A DNA stretch of 63,912 nucleotides, the filler included, from Rhabdomonas costata (Eukaryota), in assembly GCA_019059605.1 (NCBI GenBank). It is 13 parts of 13 records of this genome, joined end to end, with 100 filler letters (N's around TTAATTAATTAA, not from the genome) between each part and the next. Parts side by side here need not be neighbours in the genome. Positions count along the whole stretch, not along the records: positions 34,486 to 39,287 come from JAHMHO010000149.1; 12 more parts are not named here. One strand, given 5' to 3'. This document shows positions 3,330-42,400 of this stretch, piece after piece. Each line of letters starts with the position of its first letter. Positions within the stretch are counted from its first letter, which is position 1. Both the position numbers and the translations under genes were made by a program. Below the pieces are notes generated by a model. It was not told the DNA's origin, did no database searches, and saw nothing but the letters and a program-made list of their open reading frames with translations.

Positions 3330-4633
3330 GCTCTGGAGGAATCTCTCACATGAATCTGATTACACCTGCGTTCGCAGTCATTCCAGTTGCTCTCTCCAAG
3401 TTCTGGCAAACAATGTTTGCAATGCAATGGTGGTACAACAGTTCAAATCAAAGCACACAAGGGAAAATGAACGAGGGCAAAACGTCCCAACGCACGGAAA
3501 GGTCTGGATGAGGTTGGTAGTCATGGTCCGACAAATATAGCATGCACTGAGCATGACGAAATTCCCGGTAAGATTATGCTGCTCCGTCGCGCGTTCTGAC
3601 AAAAGATCCCATAGGATAGGGATAGGAGTAGGGTTATGGGATACAGTAGGGATATTTTAATTTGAAAAAAAGCAGAGATGTTTCGTCTTGAACAATGATA
3701 AAAGACTAGTCCGGATTAGTCCCTCCTGCGTAGATGGACGTTCGTCAAGCTGTCCCATCGGCGCAGGAGTGAAGGGGGGGGGGCTAAAGCGGCAAAATCC
3801 ATTGCGTTCTGATGTACTCTTGGGCCTTACTGAAATCAAGAAGTTGCTAGCCTTAAACCAAGGAGCGCGTAGTGGTATGAGTGGCCACACGAACAATGAA
3901 CATACTAGCTACCGATTCCCAGCGGTAGTGGGGACGCCCAAGGTTTTCCTAGGCTCAGCAATGCCTGTCAGCCACTTCAGAGAGGGTAGGATTAGTTGGG
4001 TTATGCATGGGATAAAAGTAGAAAAATCCATGTTTGCCATTATTCCGGAATTTCATCGTGGTAGGGAGTAGGGTCAGGCATTAACCAACCATCAGCGAGG
4101 TATATGCGGATATCCACTGGCCGTCATCCATACCTGTCTTGTGGTAGTCCAGCTGAGGTCACGATTTCCGCTGAAACCACCAGGTGGAACCCTAATAGTT
4201 GACGCCGCAGTGTTCGACCTGCTAACCTGTACTTGGGTTGAACGTTTGCTGTAGGGCAGGGTACAAATGTAATAAACGAACTGAACGAATCGTGGCAGCG
4301 GTGACCCACGAGTTTCGAGAACGCTCTACAACCGCCGGATGGCCACGGTGTCTTGGTCCACAAATCGGCGGCGGCTGCAGTGTGCTGCAGTGTCTGCTGC
4401 AACTTTCCCTGTTTGGGACGAAATTAAAATTTAATTATTTTCCTGCGCAAGAAATTATATTCGTATATCCATGCCCCTGCACTTCAAAGGAACGCATTTA
4501 TTTAAAAAATTATCCTTCACTGACTGCAACATTTTTGTGACGCTGGCAAGGCAGAAGTATATGTCCGGTAACATTCAGGGATTTAAAATCTGGATCGGAC
4601 TACTTTTGTACGCTGGAAATGCGGTAGCATAAC

Positions 4634-9824: not shown

Positions 9825-9948
9825 GCGTGGGACCCCATCTTCGCGCTCTACCGCGACTGCCCCGAGCCCGGCTGGGAGCCCTTTGCCGCGCGGTTCGGGC
9901 GTTACATCGTGAAGATGCCGATGGAGCTCAACGACCTCACGGGGGAGA
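9825..9948 (+). mobile_element. Non-LTR retrotransposon (LINE-type) fragment, region just upstream of the RT domain
   Basis: AWDPIFALYRDCPEPGWEPFAARFGRYIVKMPMELNDLTGE resembles the W.PIF..Y...P.W..F..RF..YI...LTGE stretch recalled from protist LINE ORF2 proteins. It abuts and appears to truncate the LRR gene. Confidence 0.55.
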
Positions 9949-10657
9949 AAGAGGATGTTGTTATGGCTTGCATCGCTGCGTCCTCGATCCAGTTGTCACT
10001 GACATTCAAGGAGGTGAGGTTGGGAAACACAGAGGATCCTGCAAACGCCTACCCTCCCTCACACCCGATGCGATTCCAGCTCACATTCAAGTGGGTGACG
10101 CTGGGAAACAAAGATGAGGCGGCTAGTGCTCGCATTCCTGCGGGGCCAATTTGATTAGAGGTGATATTAAAAGACGCAAATTTGGGGAAGAAAGAGGATG
10201 CTGCCATCATTTGCATCCCTGCATCTTCGATCCAGTTGCCGCCCACGTTCAAAGAAGTGAGGCTGCGGAAGATACAGCACGCTGCGACCGCTTGCATTCC
10301 TCCAGCCAAAAGCTTGTTGTTGCTGACATCCAAGAAAATGAGGTTAGGGAAGAGAGCAGCGGTTGCTGTGACGGCCATTTCAGCCCCAACTGAAAGCAAG
10401 TGGTGCACGAGCTCCTTGCTTTTCACTGAAATGGCCGCAGCAGAACACCCCAGCCACATGCTCCCGCGCAGGCGTTGCTCCGACACGGGGTCCAGAAGGG
10501 GTTTCGGTGGGGGTCGGAGCACAACTCTCCACTTCGGAGCGAGGGAATTGTCCACCAGACTTTGAAACTGACGGCACACCAGCCGAAGCGCGAGCTGCGG
10601 CTTGAGCCTCAAGAATTCGAAGCTGTACACCAAAGTGTCATCAGGAAGTCCAGGCAT
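9946..10657 (-). pseudogene. F-box + leucine-rich-repeat (28-aa, RNI-like) protein with an in-frame TAG
   Basis: MPGLPDDTLVYSFEFLRLKPQLALRLVCRQFQSLV is F-box-like, followed by repeats such as FPNLIFLDVSNNKLLAGGMQAVA and LTSLNVGGNWIEDAGMQMMA. TAG at 10049-10051 is followed in frame by another complete repeat, AFAGSSVFPNLTSLNVSDNWIEDAAMQAI. Confidence 0.75.
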
Positions 10658-12109
10658 TTCAAGTGAGGAGGGCTTCCAATGAGAGAAACAAAGAAAGGAG
10701 GCAAGACAGAAGACAGGGGCAAAATAGGAGTTCAAACCGTGGGGGTTGTTGAATGGTTGCTGGGGGTTATTGAATGATTTACCATTGTTAAACGGATGCC
10801 CACGAATACTCAGACAACCTCCCCGCCTCAGCCGCCCACTCCGGACGCCACGGCACTGGCCTTCGCCGGTCAAATAAATGTCCCATCAACCGAAGTCCGC
10901 TCGAAGTTGGTCCTTCAACACACCAGAACTCTCGCATCTCACGGTTCAACAACTTCGTCCCCCAGTGCATCACACTGGAAACAGGGGCTATTTCCCAGCA
11001 AGTGTGGTGTCCGGTCCACTGCCCGTGCGACAAAAACGCAACGTGATACGTGTAAGATCTGAAGCACCATTACCACATATTGGGCGACACCAGTGCAGGA
11101 CAGAAGTCCCGAATCGAGCATCTTTGAAACCTGGAACTGTGCAACGCCCCTCAAGGCGGTTTAAAAACTTCTAATTGATTCTTGGGCGAAACGCAGGGGA
11201 AATATCAACGGCAATGTCACTAATACTCTTCGAAATATGACATTTAACGTGTCCTGCAAGAAATTGCCCAAGTGACTTTATTTGGAGCTGGCTGGGGTGC
11301 AATACCAAGGCCAACCAATTCAAGTTAACGCTATTCCACAACTTGGGCAGATGAAATAAGAGACTGAAACAGAAGCGAAAGCCGTTGACAGTGGTTCCTC
11401 TTGAGGGGAAGTCTTCAAATTTCGAGACTCGGCTATAGCACCTCGTTTCGGCGTGGTAACGGTCATTTTGAATGCCAGAGGGGAAAGCAAGACGGCGAAA
11501 AACAAAGGCACAGCATCATGATAACAGCGGTGTTGGGTGAAAAAAGTTGCACACGAAACCAAATTCTGAACAACAAAATGCAATCCACCAGAAACGCGAA
11601 ACAGTGCAACGCGAGGCAAGAGGGAGAATGCGTGGGAGTTGGAAGGGCGGATCGCACTTCTCTCCAACCCAACCTATGGTGCTGCACACCACCGCCAAGG
11701 CGCGCCCAGCAAAACCATTCTGAGATGACACAGCACCAACAGGCCCAACTCACGCAACGCAAAATGGGATCGTCATTCTGCACGCTTTAAATCTCCAAAG
11801 TTCCATGACAAAATACCTCCTTTCCAGAGGCGAACACAAAAACGCCCAGGAAGTGGCTGGGCTGCGGGAGCTCCTCTTTCCACCACTCGCACAGTTGAAA
11901 ATACACTGCCACACAGCAACAGATCTGATCGGATGCCTCCAACGCCTCGACTCGTCAGTGCACAACAGGACAACTTTCACCCGCTCGCTAACAAAGTTGA
12001 CCAACACCTTCCATCTCGAATCGTACCGACTCTCCCCCAACCGCGCCGGGAGACCAGGCTCCATCGCCGACCCCCAGCACACACATTTCTCTCATGGGAG
12101 CGCACTCAC

Positions 12110-12430
12110 GCACTGATTTTGAAGAGGAACGTAGTTCTCCAGGCAGAACCGGTACACCTTCTCCAGGTGTCCGGCCTTGCCCCGGACTAGGGCCTGCAAC
12201 CCGGCCTCTGCCTTCTCCCGGCACCCCCCTGCCCCCACCGCCGCCAGGCACGCCAGCGCGGGGGCCATGTCTCGTCCCCCATCCTCTGTGGACCGGTACA
12301 GTTCCATCGGCCGCTGACGCGCCACGTCCCACAAAATGGTGGTGAGATTGTAGGCCCAGGCCTCGTCGTAGGCCTCCGTGGCAGCGCAGAGGTCATCGTG
12401 GCGGGAGGTTTCTGCGGGTTCCGCGGCCAT
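12110..12430 (-). CDS. Hypothetical protein exon
   Basis: GC-rich, protein-like open frame MAAEPAETSRHDDLCAATEAYDEAWAYNL...YRFCLENYVPLQNQC ending at a GTGAGT donor. No family recognised. Confidence 0.4.
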
Positions 12431-12748
12431 GCCGGGCACGAAGGCTTTCCACCCCAGTGAGACAACCCGGTAGCGCTCCCCTGTGTGATACCCGTTCCCT
12501 CTGTTCCCACAGTAAATGTGTCGGCATCTGGATTCGCAACGAGGTTTGTGTGCGGGTGTCTTGACGGGGCGGTTAGTGATTCTAGCGTGTAGCGTGGGTT
12601 CTTTGTGGCCATCCTCTTGTCTTCCTGGCCGTACTGGTCGCGAACACCACATCGGAATAATATATAAGCCCAGAGCCCCGTGAACCATCCGCTGCTTTCA
12701 TAGCCTGGCACTTCCACAGAACCGTACAACTTCTCATGGCCTTTGATA

Positions 12749-13169
12749 NNNNNNNNNNNNNNNNNNNNNNNNNNNNNNNNNNNNNNNNNNNNNNNNNNNN
12801 NNNNNNNNNNNNNNNNNNNNNNNNNNNNNNNNNNNNNNNNNNNNNNNNNNNNNNNNNNNNNNNNNNNNNNNNNNNNNNNNNNNNNNNNNNNNNNNNNNNN
12901 NNNNNNNNNNNNNNNNNNNNNNNNNNNNNNNNNNNNNNNNNNNNNNNNNNNNNNNNNNNNNNNNNNNNNNNNNNNNNNNNNNNNNNNNNNNNNNNNNNNN
13001 NNNNNNNNNNNNNNNNNNNNNNNNNNNNNNNNNNNNNNNNNNNNNNNNNNNNNNNNNNNNNNNNNNNNNNNNNNNNNNNNNNNNNNNNNNNNNNNNNNNN
13101 NNNNNNNNNNNNNNNNNNNNNNNNNNNNNNNNNNNNNNNNNNNNNNNNNNNNNNNNNNNNNNNNNNNNN
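12749..13169. other. Scaffolding gap (Ns) inside one contig
   Basis: N run without the TTAATTAATTAA spacer. Confidence 0.98.
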
Positions 13170-13589
13170 ACATATGACAACGCTTTCACCGCCGATATAG
13201 TGATCCCAACTTAACATACGAGTTTTCATCAAGACGTCGTTAAAAGGAAAAGGCAGGGCCAATTGTGTCACCCATGACTGGTACATTCATCACTCCCCGC
13301 ACCACTTGTAGATCCAGTCCAAACGGGAAAAGCCACACCCTTTACCCTTCCGACTGCGGAGGACTCGTGGATGCGGTTGGATGGATGGGCACGTTCGGCG
13401 AACTTCGAGAAAGTTCCAGAAACTGGACGACGGACAACCTGCCGCTGCCTGTCTGCAGCCTAGCACCGGTACAGAGTTTCATTTCTACAGTCATATGGTG
13501 CGCTTAATCTCAAAATGAGAGTTTTGAGATGCTAACCGCAAACGATATAAAACCCTGAAAAAAAACCTGACCTCAAAAATAAAAAAGAC

Positions 13590-14743
13590 CTTCCGGGGTT
13601 ACAGCGGGATGGTGGTCCGCAGGCAGCCCCGACTTCTGCCACAACCGGAGCATCTCCAGGCAGCGGAAAGGGTGGTGGTCCTTGGTCATCATCGGGGACA
13701 GCACGAGCCGGTGGAACATATTCTGCAGGGAGGGCCCAATGAAAGGTGGGGGTGGGGGTGGTATGGTTGAAACTGGCTCAAAACTTTTGTGGTCAGGTAA
13801 AACATGGCAGCACTCTCAAAATGCCTTTCCTTTGTGTGCGGTTTTCTGTTACCACTGGTAACGATTACTGGTAACGGTTACCCCCCCCCCCCCCCCGAGA
13901 ACCTCAAGGGGTGGGTAAAAATGGAAGGTTGTTGTTGGAGCTCGCCGTTCGAGAAGCCGGACCAGAAGCTGGGGTGGAAAAGGCCCACCATATGGTAAGC
14001 CGCTTGAGCCGAAGCAGTTTTAAAACGTATGCTTATGACGTGTTTCTCATATCATTGAGGCTAAAATCATGTGTCCTGAGTTTACGTAACGTGCGTCAGC
14101 TGGATAAAACGGCAACGTTCTCAATGCTCCAGCAGGTGCTGGATTAAGTGTGTCCCATTAATAACATACTTTGACATGAAGAGGGAATGAGGTAAGTGCA
14201 ACTTTTCGAGGGAAACCAAAAATTCCGAAGGAAGCAGCGTGCTTGCACCACCTTTTATCAAGGTCATCGGTATCCGAAACCCACGGAAACAGAAAGCAAA
14301 ACACAGCAAATAAACCAAAACAGCGTCTCCAGCGGAGGAACTCTAACGGGCCTTCATCGGGCGAGCGGAGATCTCGAGGCAAAAAAAAAGCTGCGTTGTT
14401 CACGTCGCAACACGACCCCATCTCAACGCATAAAAGAATAGCCCAAAGCTCCCCCATCGGCATGAAAAACGTGTTCCCAGCTCACCGCCCAAGAGGAAAA
14501 CAAAGCCACACACAAAGCTGGAGGCCAACGTGAGAGGCCTCCTGAAGGATCGGCCACACCACGGACCACGAGCCCACGAAATTCACCCCGGGGTAGTATC
14601 GCAGGTGCAGCACCCGTCCCGGGACCTGCAGGGTGAGCTCTGGGTCGGGAGTGGGGTGGCTGGCCAGGATGTACTCCGTGGAGTAGCTGTCCACAGCGGC
14701 GTTGAGATCGCTAGCGAGCTGGTTCAGCGTCGTGTGAGAGCAC
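13590..14743 (-). CDS. Class-3 lipase / diacylglycerol-lipase-like C-terminal exons (14530-14743 and ~13590-13722), partial
   Basis: Phase-0 splice gives LTLQVPGRVLHLRYYP...LQEASH/NMFHRLVLSPMMTKDHHPFRCL, matching the PG.I.H ... F..I.lS..M..DH.P catalytic-His region of DAGL-like lipases. Confidence 0.65.
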
Positions 14744-14890
14744 CTGTGTGGCACACCCAGAATAACCTACAGATGGGCTGAGATCTCCCTNNNNNNNNNN
14801 NNNNNNNNNNNNNNNNNNNNNNNNNNNNNNNNNNTTAATTAATTAANNNNNNNNNNNNNNNNNNNNNNNNNNNNNNNNNNNNNNNNNNNN

Positions 14891-23100: not shown

Positions 23101-24060
23101 ACAGCATCCCACAATGTAGCAGAAACAAAGCGTATGATGCAATCACACCGCAGCAATGCTAGTCTAAATGGCAAGACACAGCACCCCACTCCACCGCCAC
23201 CCCGACCCACACCACACATGCCAGCATTCACCCTTCCACTCTGCCGGCCGGCAGACTTTTCCGGCACAAGCCCACAGGCATATTACGCATTGTTTCTGTT
23301 TTACCTCAGGCCTACGTGCGCACTGTTTTCTGCTTGGCGCCACGCTTGCAAAATCTTGGGCTGGTCCTCAGCACCATCTCAGCGGAGCATGATAGAGTCG
23401 AATGACAATGCCATGAAGCAGCCTGAGTGAAAGGATGGAGGCATAAATTCTAAAGTCAAGCTGTGTACCAAAGCATCGTGGAGTGTAGCAGCTATTGTTG
23501 CGAGCAATGAATAGAATTAGTAGGCTTGCTGAAGGCCGAATGAGTTGAATGGGTTGCCATGGCAGAAGCTGACCCTCATGGTGAACCAACCCACTGGAGT
23601 GGAGCGACGGGAGGGTGGAGAAGGAAAAGGCCTACATGGAGAGCAGAGTGAGAACAGAGGATTGGATGGGAAGCCTCAAGGCAGTGAAGCCGCATTGCGG
23701 GGAATGATTAAGCAGCAGAATCGCGGCAATGGAGCAGAGTGATGGGAGGATTTGTGATGGTGGCGGTTTTGATATATAAGTCATGGCATTGTGTGCCATT
23801 TCCCACAATTTGCTGCGCATCAAAGGTATTTGTAGCCGCTCGGTCGTCATTATCATTCTTCACCAGCAAATGGTCCACGGTGCAAGGTCGGTACCGCGGT
23901 CGAGAAAAAGCGACCAGTGACACGGCGCCACCCAATAGACAAACGCTAAACGGCAAGAAGTAGGAACGAAGATGAATGAAGAGAATTAAGCACAACAGGC
24001 CAGAAAAGACCAAAAACAACAACACCAGCACACCCAACAGCCAACAACACCAGCACACCC
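20200..24060 (-). pseudogene. Long frameshifted, stop-riddled coding remnant, probably mobile-element derived, unassigned
   Basis: Protein-like segments hop between minus frames over ~3.8 kb with no intron signals, e.g. ELVLDVVMGSMVVVLRPEYGRYLGRV and EEWRALYIKEKLHTIWLDIKERKCEMYYDGPYHFPNG. Confidence 0.3.
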
Positions 24061-24249
24061 AACAGCGCGCACAGCAGGAACCCCAACAAAAGAGATGTGC
24101 TCCAAAGGCCCTTGAGCAGAGTTGTTAAAGATTGTCATTCTAAGATTTTCATCACAACTATTTTACTGAATTAATTTAACACAGCAGGGATTAAGCAACA
24201 GAAGAGCATCAGGTAATCGAAGGCACCAATAGGCACCAATAGGCACCAA
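24021..24249. repeat. Short tandem duplications
   Basis: AACACCAGCACACCCAACAGC twice (24021-24066). AGGCACCAAT about three times (24221-24249). Confidence 0.85.
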
Positions 24250-34485: not shown

Positions 34486-37400
34486 AGCCTCCAAGATTTG
34501 GAGGCATGAAAACATACAATTGGGAGGGTGTCAATCCTGACGGTTATTTCCTAGACAAATTAGAGCCAATACCATCAGCTTTACCGTCTTTCCAGAAATT
34601 GTTCAAAGTATAGGCAAAAGATTTATAAATAAAATGAAAAATATAAAAAAAAAAAGAAGAAGAATAAGGGAAGAAATTAGAAATATAATTTGAAGTAGAG
34701 AAAATATGAGAAGAGAAATAAAGATGATTATGAGTTGGAGGAGGAAAGAAGGAAAAAGAAGAAAGAAAAGGGAGAGGAAGGGAGGGGAGGGGGGAAGGGG
34801 GAAAAGAAGGAAAAGAAGGGGGAGAGGGAGGAAGAAGGGGGAGAAGAAGAGAGGAAAAAGGAGGGGGAGGGGAAAGAGGGGGGGGGGAAAGAAGAGAAGA
34901 AAAGAGAGAAGGAGAAGAAGGAGGGGGAGAAGAAAGAAGAGAAGGGGGGGAAGAGAAAGGGGAGGGAGGAGGAGGGAGGGAAGGAGGAGAAGGAAGGAAA
35001 GAAAGAGAGGGGGGAGGAGCAGGGGGAAGCGCGGCAAGAGAGGGAGGAGGGGAAAGGGGAAGGGGAGGAAGCGAGGGGGGAGGAGAAAAGAAGGAGGAAA
35101 AAAGAAAAGAAGAGGAAGAAGAAGAAAAAGAAAGAGAAAAAGAAGGAAGAGAAGGAAAGGAAGAAGAAAGAGAAGAAAGAGGAGAAGGGAAGGGAGAAGA
35201 GGAAGAAGGGAAAAAAAGGAAAAAAAAAGAAAGAAAAGGAGAAGAAAAGGAAGAAGGGAAAGAAGGAAAAGGAAAGGAAAGAAGGAAGGGAAAAGAGGGA
35301 GAAAGAGAAAAAGAAAAAAAACGAGGGAAGGAAGAAGAAGGGGGAGGAAAAGGAGAGAAGGGAAGGGAAGAGGGAAGAAAAGAAGAAAAAAGGAAGAAAG
35401 GAGGGGGAGAGGGAGAAAGAAAAGAAAAGGGAAGGAAAAAGGAGGAGGAGGGGGGAAAGAAGAAAAAAAAGGGAGAAAGGGAGAAAAAAGAAAGAGAAGA
35501 AGAAAGAAAGAAAGAAAGAGAAAAAAAAAGAAAGAAAAGAAAGGAAGGGGAGGGAGAAAAAGAAGAGAGGGAAGAAAAGGAGGAAGAGAAAAAAAGAAGA
35601 GGAAGGGAGGAGAGGTAAAGGGAGAAAAAAAAAGGAAAAAAAAAGAAAAAGGAGGGAAAGGAGGAAGGGGAAGGAAGGAAAGAGGAAAAAAGGAAGGGAA
35701 GGGAGAAGAAAAAAAAGCAGGGAGAAAAGAAAAAGGAGAAAAAGAAGAGGAAGGAGGGAGGGGAGGAGGAAAAGAAGAAGAAGAAAAGAGAAAAAAAAAG
35801 GAAAAAAAGGGAGGGGAGGAAGAAAAAGAAAGAGAAGAAAAAAAAGAAAAAAACGGATGAGAGGAGGGGAAAGAGGGAGAAAGAGGAAGGAAAGGAAGAA
35901 AAAAAAAAGGAAAAGAAGGAAAAGGAAAAAGAGAAAAAGAGAAAGGGGAAGAGGGAGAGGGAGGGGGAGGGAAAAAAGGGGAAGAAGAAGAGGGAGGAAA
36001 AGAAGGGAGAAAAAGAGGAGAAGAAAAAAAGGGGGAAGGAGGGAGAGAAAGAAAAGGAGGAAAAAGGAGGAAAAGAAGAAGAAGAAAAAAGAAAGAGAGG
36101 AGAGGGGGAAAAAAAGAAGAGGAAAAAAGGAAAAGGGGGAAAGAGGAGGAGGGAGAAAAGAAAAAGAAAGAGGGGAGAAAGAAGGAAGGAGGGAAGAGAG
36201 AGGGGGAGGAAGAGGGAGAGAAAAGGGAAAAGGAAAGGGAAAAGGAAGAGGAAAAGGAAAAAAAGGAAAGGAAGGGAAAAAAGGGGAAGAAGAAGGGGGG
36301 AGAAGAAGGAAGAGGGAGGGAAAAGAAAAAGAAGGAGGGGAAGGAAGGAAGGGGAAGAAGGAAAGAAGGGGAGAAGAAGGAGAAAAAGAAGAAGGAGAAG
36401 AAAGAGAAAAAGGAAAAGAAGAAAGAGGAAAAGGAGGAGAAGAAGAAAAAGAAAGGAAAAAAGAAGGAAGAGAAAGGGAAAGAGGAGGAAAGGGGAAAGA
36501 AAAAAAAGGGGAGAAAGAAAGAGAGGGAGAAGGAAAAGAAAAGGGAGAGGGAAGGGAAGGAAGAGAGGGAGGAGAAGGAGGAGGAAAAAGAAAAAGAGAA
36601 AGAGGAAAAAGAGGGAAAGGAGAAGGAAAAAAGAAAAGAGGAAAAGAAGGGGGAGAGGGAGGGGGAAAAAGAAAAGAAAAAGGGAAGAAAGAAGGGGGGG
36701 AAGGGAAAGAAAAAGAAGAGAAAGAGGAAAAGAGAGGAGAGAGAAGGAAAAGGAAAGGACGGGGGGAAGAGGAAGAAGAGGGGGGAAAGAAAAAGGAAGA
36801 AAGAAAAGAAGGGGAAAGAGGAAGGAAGGAAGAAAGGGAGGGGGAAGGAGGAAAAGGAGAAGAAGAAGAGGGAAGAAAAAGAAGGGAAAGAGAGGGGGGA
36901 GAAGGAGGCAGGGGGAGAGAAAGAGAAGGAGAAGGAGGAAGCGGAGAAGGAAAAAGGGGGGGGAGAGGGAAGAAAAGGAAAAAAGAAAGAGAAGAAGAGG
37001 GAGGAAGAGAAGGAGGGGGAGAAGAGGGAAGGGAAGGAAGAAAAGGAGAGGGAAAAGAGGGGGGAGAGAGAGGAAAAGAAAAAGGAAAAAAAGGAGGAGG
37101 GAGGGGAGGGGGAGAAGGGGGAAGAGGGAAAAGAAAAGAGGAAGGGGAAAGAGAAAAAGGAGGGGGAAAAGGAGGGAGAGGAGGGGAAGGAAAAAAAGAA
37201 GGAAGGAAAGGAAGAAAAGGGGAAAAAGAAAAGGGAAGAGGAGGGAAAGAAAAAGGAAAAAGGGAGAAAGGAGAGGAAAGAGAAAGGAAAAGAAGAAAGG
37301 GAGAAAGAAGGAGAGAGAAAAAGGAGGAAAGAGAGAAGGAGGAGAAAGAGAGAAAAGGAGGAGGGGAAAGGGGAAGAAGAAGAAAAAGAGGAAAAGAAAG

Positions 37401-39287
37401 GAAGAAAAGAGGGGAAAGGGAAGGAGGAAGAAGAGAGGAGAAAGGGGGAAGAGGAGAAAGAAGGGAGAAGAAAGGAAGGGGAAGACGAAAAGGAAAGGAA
37501 AAGGGGGGAAAAAAGAAAGAAAAAAGAAGAGAGAAGGGAAGAGGGAAGGGAGGAAAGAGAAAAGGAGGAGGAAGAAAAGGGAGAGAGAAAGAAAGGGGGG
37601 GAAAGGGAGAAAGGAAAGAAAGAAGGAGGAAAGGAAGGGGGGAAGAAAGGGGGAGGAGGAGGAAGGAAGAAAGGAAGGGGGGAAGGAGAGGAAAAGAAAG
37701 GGAAAAGAGAAAAAGGAAGAGGAGGGAAAAGGAAGAGAGAAGAAAGGAAGAAGGGGGGAAGGAAAGGAAGAGAAGGAAAGGAGGAGAAAGGAAGGGGGAA
37801 GGGGGAAGGGAGGAAAAGAAGAAGAAAGGAAGGAAGAAAGAAAAGAAAAAGGAGAAGGAAAGAGAGGGGAGAAGAAAAAGGAAAGAGGAAAAGAAAAGAA
37901 AGAAGAAAAGAAGAGAAGAGAAAGAGAGAGGGAAGGAGAAAGAAAAAAGGGGGGAAGAGGAAGAAAAGAGAAAGAAGAGGAGGGGAAAGAAAAAAAGGAA
38001 GAAGAAGGAAGGAGAGGAAGAGAGGAAAAAGAGGGAGGGAAAAGGAAGGAGGGGGAAGGAAAGGGAAGAAGGAGGGAGGAAAGAGGAGGGGGGGAAAAGA
38101 AGAGGAAGAAGAGAGGAAGAAAAGAGAGGGGAAAAGGGAAAAAAGAGAAGAGAGAAAAGGAAAAAAAGGGGAAGAAGAGAGAAAAAAGGAAGGGAAGAAA
38201 GGGAAAAGAAGAGGAAGAAAAGGAGAAGAAGAAAAAGAGGAAGGGGGGGAAAGAAGAGGGAGGGGAGGGCGAAAGGGAGAAAAGGAAGAGAGGAGAGAGA
38301 GGAGAAAGGAGAGGGAGAAGGGGAGAAGGGGAAGAAAGAAGGAAAAGGAGAGGGAAGGAGGAAAAAAGAAGTAGGAAGGAAGGAGGGAGAAAGAGAAGGG
38401 GGAGAAGAAGAAGAAATAGAAGAAAGGGGGAAAGGAGGAGGAAGGGAAGAGAGAAAAAGAGGAAGGGGGGAGAAGAAAAGAAGGGGGAGAGAAGAGAGAA
38501 GAAAGGGGAGAAGAGGGGGAGGAAAAGGGGGAGAAGAAAAAAAGGAGGAGAAAGGAAAGGGGAAAAGAAGAAAGAGAAGAGAGAGGGGGGAGGGAGGAGG
38601 CAAGAGAGGGGGGAAAGGAGGAGAGGAGGAAACCAGAGGGGGAAGGGGGAGGAAGAAAGAAGGGGAAAGAGGGGGAAGGGGGAGAAGGGGAAGAAAGAAG
38701 GGGAGGAGAAGGAGGAGGAGGAAAAGAGGAGGGGGAAGGAGAGAAAGAGGGGGGGGGAGGGAGGGGGGCAAGGAGGGAGAGAAGAGAAAGGGAGAAGAAA
38801 GGGAAAGAGAGGAAGGGGGGGGAAAGGAGGGAGAAAAAGAGAAAAAAAAAGAAAGAGAAAGGGGAGAGGGAAGAGGAGAAAAGGGAGAAGCAAAAGGCAA
38901 AAAAAAAAAAGAAAGGGAAAAAGAGGAAGGCGGGGAGAGAAAGGAGAGGGGAAGAAGATAAAAAGAAAGAAAAGTAGGGGGAAAGAGATGGAAAGGGAGG
39001 AGAGGGAGGAAAAGAAGAAAAAAAGGAGGGGAAAAGAGAAAGGGAGGAAGGGGAAGAAGAAAGGGAAAAGAAGGGAAAGGAAGAAGGAAAGGAGAGGGAA
39101 AAGAAGAAGGAAAAAAAAAAGAAGGAGAGAAGGAGGAGGGGGAAGAAGGAGAAGGGAGAAAAGAGGAAGAAAGAAAAAGAAGAAAAAGAGAAAGAAAAGA
39201 GGAAAGAAAAGAAGGGGGAGGAGAAGAAAAAGAAGAGAAGAGGGAGGAAGAAAAAGGGAGAGGGGAAAAAAAGAGAAAAAAAAAAGA
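34486..39287 (-). other. phiX174 spike-in genome (reverse complement, ~4.8 of 5.4 kb) mis-called as A/G only: sequencing artefact
   Basis: The first ~120 nt match the phiX174 gene H end and adjacent intergenic region as recalled. After that, C is replaced by A and T by G. Converting recalled phiX sequence this way reproduces the tract at both ends, and the residual C/T bases fall where phiX has them. Confidence 0.96.
34544..34620 (-). CDS. H: phiX174 DNA pilot protein H, C-terminal fragment (contaminant)
   Basis: NNFWKDGKADGIGSNLSRK* is the phiX174 H C-terminus. Confidence 0.95.
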
Positions 39288-39400
39288 NNNNNNNNNNNNN
39301 NNNNNNNNNNNNNNNNNNNNNNNNNNNNNNNTTAATTAATTAANNNNNNNNNNNNNNNNNNNNNNNNNNNNNNNNNNNNNNNNNNNNTTTTGGTGGGATT

Positions 39401-39439
39401 GTGTGCGTGTGTGTGCGTGTGTGTGTGTGTGTGTGTGTG
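39401..39439. repeat. (GT)n microsatellite
   Basis: Directly visible, with two GC interruptions. Confidence 0.95.
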
Positions 39440-42400
39440 GCAGTGGTGTTTTTTTTGTTATTGTTGTCATGAACTTTTTAATTGTTTTTTTCTAGTGTAG
39501 TGTGTTTGCGCGCTCATTGCAATCTTTGGCCTCTTGCTGTGGTTTTTTGTTAGTGCATGCGTTGGTTTCTTACCTTAATTTGTGTAAAAGGTGTCAATGT
39601 TGGATCATAAGTTGTTTAGCTGATGCTGGCTAGGTTTATGAATCCAGACTTTTGTTTGGTGGAGACAAAAACCACTACCCAAATGTTGGCATTTTTCCAA
39701 ATGATAAAGGTGATTCCATCACTACTATGCTTTTCTTTGTAAACCATCCTCCATGCTCCTACATCAGTTGCTATCATGTAAAGCCGTAGACCATATATCA
39801 AGCAACACAAAAACATTCAAATTTATATTTACGGTCTCTGAATCATTATGCGCAAATAAGGTAAAGTAACAAACCGGCGGTTGATTAGAACTCCAGCCAT
39901 GCATGTTTGAAGCAGTAAGGGTGCTGCTCGCCGAATGCGGCGCTCAGGGTCACGTATCAAAATGAAGGCAATGGCTTATAGCCCTATTGTTTACACCTAC
40001 TCAGGGGAGTGGCTTAACCACTCCACCAGGTTTTGCAGTCTTTTCGGGGTTATAACAGGGTCAGAGTCCTTGAAAATACCTCGCGATATCCTTTGCATAC
40101 CGTATTTTTTACTCACCCAAGGGCTTGCTCATCCATTTATGAGCCATTTTTGACCCAAAATCCAGTTATTTAATAAAAGAGGCCAACAAATGCCCTCACC
40201 ACAGCTTCAAAAACGGATCAAATCCTCACAAAAACGCTTTTTTTCTGGGGCAAAACACATATTTGTGTCGATTTCCGGAGATTCGATTTTTCACCCCAGA
40301 CACCCCATTTTGACCCTTACAGGGTACCACAGAGATAAGCCAAAATGGCCAAATTTTGGTCAAAACCTTTGCTCGAGCGTCAAAATAGTTGATTCCAACA
40401 GTGTTTGCTGTGTTCCCATAACACAAAAATGTGGTGCACGTTTTTCGACTCAAAGTCTACGTCGTTTTATGTTCCAAAAAGCGATTTTTTCATAGCGTTT
40501 TGGGCTGACCGAGCCAAAAAAGTTTCGCCTCTGCTATCACCTAGCCTTTTAGTAGTCAGTTCTGACCACCTCCATTGATAGCTTCCTGCAATTAACATGT
40601 GGTTATACAAAACTTCAACTACTTCGCGCAAAAAGATTACTTAAACACGGACACACAAGTAATGCCGCTGCGAGGCTAGTTCCGAAACAAAACAAATTCC
40701 ATTCTTCTCAACGTTGTGATGCAGGTGCTGTATTTCTTGCAAGAAAAATCATCAGCAGTTTTAGACTTTTACACTGCTCTGATTTCCAAATTCTTCCATA
40801 AGTGCAGCTCAAAAAGTTTGAAAATGGGCCTTGCAATGGAAAATTACACCAAAACCACCACACAAACTGATCAAAAATGCCTAAAACGCATTTTTCTGAA
40901 CCACAAACATCAGAAACAGATTTGTAGATTTTGGGGAACTTTTTTTTACCCTAAAGACAGCTTTTTTTTTGGTATGTATCTGTGGACATCGGTGGTCGTT
41001 TTTGTAGGGCTCAAAAACTTGTCATTTTGCTTCAAACGTGGTCTCTTTTTGCCTAAAATTTGTACTTTGAGCTTGCAAATTGGTGTTTTGTGTTATAGTA
41101 CAACAAAAATGTGGAATTATGTCACCTCTTTTGGTATACACTCGAAGTCTACTTTGTTTAATAGTCCAAAAACGTAATTGTTTTTAGCGTTTTTTCAGAA
41201 AAAATTCGGCAATGTCCGCGGTTCCAAAAAGTGAAAACTATGAGGTGATGGGTTCGAAAAACTTAAATTGTCGAGTTTTTACCACTTCATTTCTTTCTGA
41301 TAGCCCACACACAAAAAATGTGCTTGAATGCCACACGGAGGCTTTCAACGCCAACTGCGCAACGAGCGCAACAGTGATGTTCTCGTGAGGGCATGATATC
41401 ACAGAGGCAGTGCGGAGCCTGCTTTTCATCCAAAGCATTTCATGTAATTATCAATAATGGATGAATCAATTTAATCCATATTAGCTGGTTGTAATTACGC
41501 ATGGAGGGTAGTATGTCTAGCTTTTTGCATTTTTAAAGCCGCCTTACTTGAGTAAACTGCTACTGCATCACAGTACCACAGTACAAGCGCTATCCACGAA
41601 ATCTTGTGTCCTGTGTGTGGACATATTTTTCATGTGTGAAAAATGGGTCCTTCGAGCAAAGTGCAAAAATGGCTATTGCAGACTTATCGTTTTACAAGCT
41701 GCGAAAATTGGCGGCTGTATCAAATCTATCACGGGCGTTGAACTCAGAGGGCCTTCTCGGGAACGGCGCTTCCGCAATTTGGAAAAACGAAGCGCTATTA
41801 TGAAAAGCAGGGCGGAACAGTTTGCATAAAAACAATGATTCGCATTGATGTTTGGTGGGGCATGGGGCCACTGAGGCGGAGAAGGGAAGGGGGTCGAAAG
41901 CGGAAGGCGGGGCTGGAAAAGTCTGCTTCTGCGAAGGTGGGGTTGAAAGTTTGAACGAAGGACGTAAATGAAAATGGGCACCGGGCGAAAGTGCACCGCA
42001 GGATGATCTCTAGGAGCTCCTTGGAACACAAAAATTGGCGGGAACGAAACGGTGGAACACCCGGGCAAATAAGGCGGCAACCGCTTACCGCGTGGGAAGA
42101 GGGGTATCTAAATCGCAACGGGCCAGCCGCGGTGCGCCGGCATTGGCCACCCCGTTTTTTTTTTGACGGCGGCGGCGGGCTTATGCCGGCTCCAATCGCC
42201 CATGCGAATGCCATCATGCCTTTTTTTAACGGCCACAAAAAGGCCAAAGGGAAACATATCGGGCACTTTGTTTTTTTCATTAGGGATATGCTGTTGAATG
42301 TTCAGGTGGTGCGCTGCAAAAATAGCGATAGCCTGGTTAAAACAGAAAATGGCCGGGAAAGAGTTCAAAGGGACATCTGGCGGCACGGGCTTTGCGCAAT

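Follow-up and report, generated by a model that had tools for sequence, protein, structure and literature searches.

A purine-only contig in a Rhabdomonas costata assembly is phiX174 with C written as A and T written as G

The window analyzed here, a stretch of 63,912 nt from the Rhabdomonas costata assembly GCA_019059605.1, consists of 13 scaffolds whose joints are N44-TTAATTAATTAA-N44 spacers. One of these scaffolds (JAHMHO010000149.1) is composed almost entirely of A and G (A 53.6%, G 44.0%, C 1.0%, T 1.4%), which raises the question of whether it is a polypurine tract of the organism or has some other origin. By composition, the remaining 12 of 12 scaffolds in the window are ordinary four-letter sequence. 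Simple repeats occur in neighboring scaffolds, for example (TG)n at ~39400–39440. In the two-letter contig, Tandem Repeats Finder returned only weak, overlapping rows (58–83% matches) and no real periodicity; such rows are the noise that a two-letter composition yields, and the tract is aperiodic, as the preliminary description had it. An Rfam search of the window gave no match. Host flank is absent from the contig, and its sole four-letter portion is phiX174. It thus has neither the repeat unit nor the host flank of a natural polypurine tract or simple repeat.

We found that the contig is the genome of phage phiX174 with C written as A and T written as G; it neither belongs to the organism's DNA nor reflects any biology. 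The first 155 nt match 159 phage records by megablast, the best matches being to phiX174 3821–3975 on the minus strand. An ungapped placement of the whole contig on the NC_001422 minus strand, with C merged into A and T merged into G on both sides, leaves 8 mismatches in 4802 positions (99.83% identity). The same comparison with EF380009 gives 11 mismatches (99.77%), and identity as written is 55.2%. As a control, all 5386 rotations on both strands were scored (10,772 placements; mean 0.50, SD 0.012), and the runner-up reached 55.2%. In the merged alphabet the contig is colinear with phiX174 from its first base to its last, without an indel in the 4802 nt and with the wrap across the circular origin included. 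For comparison, the longest purine-only run in true phiX174 is 10–11 nt.

As written, the contig differs from the minus strand of NC_001422 at 2148 positions, and 2139 of these differences stay within the A/C or the G/T pair (1066 C to A, 1073 T to G; 9 others). Beyond contig offset 300, 19 of the 20 leftover C and all 7 leftover T stand on true C and true T. This comparison, with the reverse complement of phiX174 and the contig converted in the same way, is the one that the preliminary description had proposed, and it bears out the reading of the tract as phiX174 in a two-letter code, the next placement lying at 55%. Further details of that description also proved accurate: the phiX174 text underlying 35012–35041 and the contig end, past the circular origin, is as it was given there, and the residual Cs, all but one of those beyond offset 300, are in their true places. 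A double-stranded contig looks the same whether minus-strand C and T were written as A and G or plus-strand A and G were written as C and T, a caveat that the preliminary description lacked.

The conversion sets in stepwise and divides the contig into three zones (Table 1). Zone 1 is perfect phiX174, with C kept at 26 of 26 positions, T kept at 33 of 33 and no mismatch. The peptide NNFWKDGKADGIGSNLSRK*, noticed earlier at the contig start, lies on the reverse strand and corresponds to the protein H C-terminus. In zone 2, 31 of 32 C positions have become A, leaving C at 1 of 32, and T is retained at 28 of 29. In zone 3, both conversions are nearly complete (1035 of 1054 C have become A, 98.2%; 1072 of 1079 T have become G, 99.4%), with 9 other differences and with scattered correct bases persisting (19 C and 7 T). 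The losses of C and of T, previously placed at ~34620 and ~34740, begin at the starts of zones 2 and 3.

Table 1. Coordinates of the contig, its zones, the control-lot markers and the spurious open frames (window positions)
Feature	Window position	Strand	Size	phiX174 position	Remarks
Stand-alone contig	34486–39287		4802 nt	begins 3975, runs down through the origin (wrap at window 38460/38461), ends 4560	one of 13 scaffolds
Zone 1, unaltered four-letter sequence	34486–34604	+	119 nt	3975 to 3857	phiX174 minus strand; H-A intergenic region and gene H 3' end, gene H on the window's reverse strand
Zone 2, three-letter code	34605–34736	+	132 nt		C to A, T still T
Zone 3, two-letter code	34737–39287	+	4551 nt	3724 down to 1, wrap at window 38460/38461, end 4560	C to A, T to G; phiX174 minus strand
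Control-lot marker span	35328–37874	+			five positions differing from NC_001422 in the merged alphabet
Control-lot markers	35328, 35650, 35730, 37628, 37874			3133, 2811, 2731, 833, 587	same order in both columns
Fake open frame	34735–38961	+	1408 aa		ORF listing; Lys/Arg/Glu/Gly codons only
Fake open frame	34544–38893	reverse	1449 aa		ORF listing
Fake open frame	34728–38900	reverse	1390 aa		ORF listing

The residual mismatches identify the template. Five of the eight that remain against NC_001422 in the merged alphabet are exactly the published variants of the Illumina PhiX control lot, which were seen in all PhiX runs as 587A, 833A, 2731G, 2811T and 3133T (PMC6302405, Table 1). The same table reports a variant at phiX 2793 as unobserved, and in line with it the contig has the reference class at that position. 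The template of the contig is therefore the Illumina PhiX control-lot genotype.

We also found a second case. In a genome collection of 185,579 species, an exact 71-nt match to converted phiX occurs in a single assembly, on contig_88 of Acetobacterium bakii DSM 8239. This assembly, which is in RefSeq, holds three two-letter phiX contigs with 9.5 kb in total: C82 is the converted plus strand (99.89%), and C86 (99.82%) and C89 (99.96%) both represent the minus strand after conversion. The identical five control-lot markers are present in these contigs, in both strand versions, and all three contigs are deposited in the C/T orientation. No ordinary four-letter phiX contig was found in the A. bakii assembly. 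The head of C86 has ~100 nt of four-letter sequence with patchy C to A changes ahead of the full switch. The last 25 nt at the 3' tip of C86 carry a change of the opposite kind, which the model given below leaves unexplained. According to the paper on DSM 8239, the genome was assembled with CLC from 2x150 MiSeq reads. Since the two phiX strands are converted separately in A. bakii, the change is a read-level error and not real DNA: separate conversion requires that a strand has already been chosen, which places the event at base calling or in the handling of reads rather than in any DNA molecule. Exact 51- or 71-nt scans for the converted minus strand gave 0 matches in two scans of metagenome contigs and 0 in two scans of viral contigs. 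The artefact is rare, and its recurrence rests on two assemblies.

How could such reads arise? The contig was probably assembled from faulty reads of the Illumina PhiX174 spike-in, in which four-color base calling no longer resolved A from C or G from T, and we infer indirectly that this optical dye-pair collapse is the likeliest cause. The available text of PMC3163567 and PMC4381044 describes A and C as sharing a red source and G and T a green one, with strongly correlated intensities that reflect similar emission spectra and limited filter separation; the latter also describes the MiSeq as imaging the four nucleotides via a red source (A/C), a green source (G/T) and four filters. In the proposed mechanism, the base caller would, for a minority of clusters, cease to tell apart the dyes that share an excitation source, and all red-pair signal would be called A and all green-pair signal G. 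The two pairs could fail at separate points; in this contig C is lost ~130 nt before T. The switch would arise inside reads: normal and converted phiX have no common word longer than 11 nt, so that they could be joined only through reads that carry the switch. If phiX is thousands of times deeper than the host, as typical spike-in fractions in practice suggest, phiX alone would supply enough bad reads to assemble. The earlier attribution to lost A/C and G/T discrimination in four-color imaging thus gains from the published dye pairing and from a second case on a MiSeq, while the optical step itself is still inferred.

Other origins have to be weighed against this one. That the contig is a real polypurine/polypyrimidine tract of the organism, or phiX DNA chemically converted before sequencing, has next to no chance of being right. 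Eukaryotes do have long purine-rich tracts, and repeats of the (TG)n type lie in nearby scaffolds, but a 99.8% match to converted phiX over 4802 nt, with zero indels, control-lot variants and no periodicity, speaks against a real tract, and the non-complementary contigs into which the two strands were converted in A. bakii are impossible for duplex DNA. No chemistry known to us would take C to A as well as T to G near completion. Real DNA is rejected on the separately converted strands of A. bakii together with the merged-alphabet match to phiX. Corruption could also have been digital. BCL files and many assemblers use a two-bit code for bases (A=00, C=01, G=10, T=11), and clearing the low bit in a file or program would write C as A and T as G without any optical fault. 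The mapping predicted in this way is exactly that observed, and the near-complete conversion of zone 3 (98.2% of C, 99.4% of T) would follow. However, a cleared bit should alter C and T together, whereas in zone 2 nearly every C has become A (31 of 32) and nearly every T has stayed (28 of 29); scattered correct C (19) and T (7) survive as well, and at the head of A. bakii C86, C gives way to A in patches before the full switch. We consider a digital cause very improbable, and a single cleared bit is rejected on zone 2, which loses C while retaining T. An assembler k-mer mix-up as the origin was likewise rejected, there being no common word of more than 11 nt between normal and converted phiX.

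The two remaining alternatives keep the fault in base calling. In two-color chemistry, A is read as both colors, C as red, T as green and G as none; were green to fade to red bleed-through, A and C would all be called A, and T and G would all be called G. One progressive fault of this kind could yield loss of C first (red bleed) and loss of T later (green dead), and the expected two-letter code is the same. Nevertheless, we regard a two-color collapse as unlikely: A. bakii, the one case whose platform is documented, was run on a MiSeq, with four-filter imaging according to the available text of PMC4381044, and the scenario is our own reasoning, no report of such behavior having been found in a literature search. 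It is similarly doubtful that the direction was reversed, with plus-strand phiX reads called A to C and G to T and the A/G contig being the reverse complement of a C/T assembly. Such a reversal would involve the same dye pairs and leave an identical double-stranded contig, and the C/T deposition of all three A. bakii contigs would suit it. The long four-letter end, however, is 5' in the A/G orientation (251 nt here, ~100 nt in A. bakii C86), which suits reads that are sound at first and deteriorate over the cycles, whereas a reversed direction would need a corrupt start followed by recovery.

The dye-pair collapse that we favor resembles several known systems in part. Like the PhiX contamination described in the available text of PMC4511556, the contig has the unindexed PhiX174 spike-in as its source and sits by itself as a small contig within a deposited assembly; that contamination is four-letter sequence of at least 90% identity, whereas the present contig, at 55% as written, would escape flagging. 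The confusion of A with C and of G with T is that of four-color cross-talk errors as treated in the available text of PMC3163567, PMC4381044 and PMC4053729. There, cross-talk amounts to a few per thousand to per cent and runs in both directions, but in the contig the confusion is near total (98–99%), one-way and lasting enough to assemble kilobases. Two-color poly-G tails, which are generally known, are similar in that a loss of signal is called as confident, false low-complexity sequence. A poly-G tail carries no information, however, whereas the two-letter contig keeps one bit per base of its template, and the contig is therefore traceable to phiX. Bisulfite sequence, also general knowledge, shares the smaller alphabet, the non-complementary strands and the need for merged-alphabet alignment; in contrast to the contig, it reflects a real chemical change of C to T that leaves three letters, while the change here (C to A plus T to G) most likely stems from instrument or software.

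Having no long word in common with phiX, the converted sequence would pass contamination screens. BLAST of phiX against the window gives one match, to the first 251 nt of the contig (87.3% identity, 5% of the contig), and zone 3 shares 0 words of 15, 21 or 31 nt with phiX. The contig thus lies outside the usual contamination criterion of BLASTn identity of at least 90% over at least 80% of a contig, which is that of the phiX screen of Mukherjee et al. 2015 (PMC4511556, available text). Evasion of phiX filters, which the preliminary description had predicted, is borne out by these figures and by the three such contigs that A. bakii retains. Its warning about the quality of the whole assembly is overstated at present, as the 12 other scaffolds of the window are normal and the purine-only 80-mers of A. 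bakii all lie within its three phiX-derived contigs (9155 of 9155). Ordinary BLAST and k-mer phiX filters are blind to two-letter contamination of this kind. A cheap remedy would be to match contigs to each of the two phiX strands in an alphabet that treats A and C as one letter and G and T as another, and the same merged-alphabet comparison could trace other two-letter contigs to their source.

A literature search, with subscription journals and vendor notes outside its scope, found no prior description of such a two-letter artefact. We tentatively suggest, at somewhat less than even confidence, that a recurrent and so far undescribed Illumina base-calling failure, in which each dye pair becomes one letter and one bit per base is kept, may be seeding public assemblies, including that of a RefSeq bacterium, with kilobase pseudo-contigs and stop-free fake proteins unseen by identity and k-mer screens; host-derived versions may exist where coverage is high (rRNA, organelles, plasmids).

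The fake frames of ~1400 aa foreseen earlier do exist as mechanical ORFs (Table 1); no stop codon can be written with A and G alone or with C and T alone, and this is the only reason that they stay open. A protein search with the 1408-aa frame (one of six) against 8000 candidates gave none at E ≤1e-10, a result that is uninformative as the query is of low complexity. Through two-letter contigs, protein databases can acquire such low-complexity pseudo-proteins, made of Lys/Arg/Glu/Gly or Phe/Leu/Ser/Pro. The artefact is of little biological interest but is useful for quality control; as far as the organism is concerned, the contig and its ~1400-aa frames merit deletion.

The window comprises 13 scaffolds of ~4.8 kb each and is not one molecule; the spacers have the form N44-TTAATTAATTAA-N44. 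The two-letter tract spans exactly one scaffold (window 34486–39287, 4802 nt; here the contig), with a base composition of A 53.6%, G 44.0%, C 1.0%, and T 1.4%. Both the GC and the AT skew approach +1 over 35–39 kb only, and the other 12 scaffolds have a normal composition. The 13 scaffolds are unrelated and of similar length, so neighbours supply no genomic context. A 421-N gap lies at window 12749–13169, inside the scaffold at 9825–14790.

The first 155 nt of the contig match 159 phage records, the best being phiX174 3821–3975 on the minus strand. Placed ungapped on this strand from position 3975, the contig as written is only 55.2% identical to phiX174, whereas merging C with A and T with G in both sequences raises identity to 99.83% against NC_001422 (8 mismatches in 4802) and to 99.77% against EF380009. 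In a control that scored every one of the 5386 rotations of either strand, the runner-up placement reached 55.2% (mean 0.50, SD 0.012). Along the contig, phiX positions descend from 3975 to 1, continue past the origin (window 38460/38461), and stop at 4560. The preliminary description, which had read the tract as rewritten phiX174 and not as biology, is thus confirmed in its observation and supported in its interpretation, and the peptide and two phiX strings it gave are right when compared with phiX174. The tract arose as a sequencing artefact and represents no feature of the genome.

The contig passes from four letters through three (C lost, T kept) to two, and the onsets of C loss and of T loss are both stepwise, with no gradient. 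Changes inside the A/C and G/T pairs make up 2139 of 2148, a one-way collapse. Past offset 300, residual C falls on true C at 19 of 20 positions and residual T on true T at 7 of 7. Three residual T cluster with two private G to A differences (at phiX 4879 and 4889) in a small patch, window 38958–38989, where the consensus seems to have been taken from reads that were less fully converted.

Zones of the contig and the two-letter contigs of Acetobacterium bakii DSM 8239 (percentages as reported for the match to phiX)
Feature	Position or length	Content	Letters kept or match
Zone 1	window 34486–34604	119 nt error-free four-letter phiX	C kept 26/26, T kept 33/33
Zone 2	window 34605–34736	C to A at 31/32 positions	T kept 28/29
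Zone 3	window 34737–39287	C to A 1035/1054, T to G 1072/1079	9 other differences
A. bakii C82 (L039)	4449 nt	converted plus strand from phiX 4446	99.89%
A. bakii C86 (L043)	2756 nt	converted minus strand, phiX 3816 to 1061	99.82%
A. bakii C89 (L046)	2306 nt	converted minus strand, phiX 614 through origin to 3695	99.96%

Of the eight differences from NC_001422 that remain in the merged alphabet, five (587 G>A, 833 G>A, 2731 A>G, 2811 C>T, and 3133 C>T) are exactly the variants that Table 1 of a published study gives for all PhiX control runs it examined; position 2793, altered in Illumina's iGenomes file, is described there as not observed changed (PMC6302405). The contig is likewise in the unchanged state at 2793, and its differences at phiX 3474, 4879, and 4889 are private. 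Because all five control variants are present and 2793 is unchanged, the template is the commercial PhiX control library and neither wild phage nor the GenBank reference.

A second, independent case came from an exact search with a 71-nt piece of the two-letter body, which had one match in a genome collection of 185,579 species, A. bakii DSM 8239 contig_88, and none in viral and metagenome collections, each scanned twice. The A. bakii assembly contains three two-letter contigs, pyrimidine-only in the deposited draft and 9.5 kb together, which share the five control-lot variants. All 9155 purine-only 80-mers of this 4.1-Mb assembly lie in these three contigs, a tally that reveals no host-derived two-letter contig. 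BLAST with phiX found no normal phiX contig in this genome, the only matches being the four-letter tips of C86. According to the genome announcement, sequencing was on MiSeq v2 with 2×150 cycles, and the reads were assembled with CLC, contigs having a minimum length of 1051. The record titled contig_88 has an accession number ending in 87, which hints at one contig dropped before deposit.

Both phiX strands occur as separate, non-complementary converted contigs, which means that individual reads were rewritten once the strand had been chosen. A duplex molecule cannot yield such a conversion of both strands, so real DNA is rejected, as is chemical conversion of any kind known to us. The longest purine-only run of true phiX is 10–11 nt, and the two-letter body has no 15-, 21-, or 31-mers in common with phiX; shared words thus gave the assembler no path from normal to converted sequence, and the switch must lie inside some reads. 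Clearing one bit of a two-bit base code would produce the same mapping, but this rival is rejected: C is lost before T, and it cannot give zone 2.

In four-colour Illumina imaging a red source excites A and C and a green source G and T, and intensities within each pair are described as strongly correlated, with similar emission spectra and partial filter separation (PMC3163567; PMC4381044; PMC4053729). Total one-way collapse inside each dye pair would give exactly the observed code. As the code is a within-pair collapse, and as A. bakii, the only two-letter case with a known platform, was sequenced on a MiSeq, the dye pairs probably collapsed during base calling in a small share of the clusters; the sequence does not tell which part failed (filter, focus, light source, or cross-talk matrix). 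A two-colour instrument whose green image held red bleed-through only would write an identical code, and one progressive fault there could account for C being lost before T. Errors in the reverse direction, A to C and G to T on plus-strand reads, would also give an identical contig. The long four-letter ends of the contig and of A. bakii C86 are both 5' in A/G orientation, which favours, in two cases only, reads whose early calls are good and whose later calls decay to A/G. In that orientation the final 25 nt of C86 (the first 25 nt as deposited) show the opposite errors, with A written as C and G as T, beside 13 correct bases; this short four-letter tip may be chimeric, formed in assembly. 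The two four-letter heads lie in the same part of phiX (3975–3725 in the contig, ~3816–3715 in C86), which may be chance (probability roughly 6%); we found no cause.

Depth would explain why only phiX yields two-letter contigs. At typical PhiX spike-in fractions, on which this argument rests, a 5.4-kb spike-in genome would have a read depth thousands of times that of the host, and a fault in well under 1% of clusters would leave phiX at assembling depth and the host at far less than 1x. This agrees with the 80-mer tally in A. bakii and with the 12 normal scaffolds in the window; the same observations, within the material examined, do not bear out the earlier warning about the entire assembly.

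Contamination of assemblies by phiX is well known (PMC4511556; PMC6404606), and our literature search, with vendor notes and subscription journals outside its scope, found no account of a two-letter form. One published screen requires at least 90% identity across at least 80% of a contig (PMC4511556). The BLAST match of phiX to the contig is 251 nt at 87%, and the contig would get through that screen and any k-mer filter with k > 11. Its open frames of 1408, 1449, and 1390 aa are mechanical, because stop codons cannot be spelled in two-letter text; a protein search with one of them returned nothing at E ≤ 1e-10, a result of little weight for a low-complexity query. The biological interest is low. 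The practical interest is modest yet real, since the two-letter form hides a common contaminant, which merged-alphabet comparison can detect.

Two repeats elsewhere in the window, a perfect 25-nt tandem duplicate at 24017–24066, within 100 nt that lack T, and a (TG)n/(TGCG) microsatellite at 39400–39440, at the start of the scaffold after the contig, are ordinary host simple repeats with no relation to the artefact.
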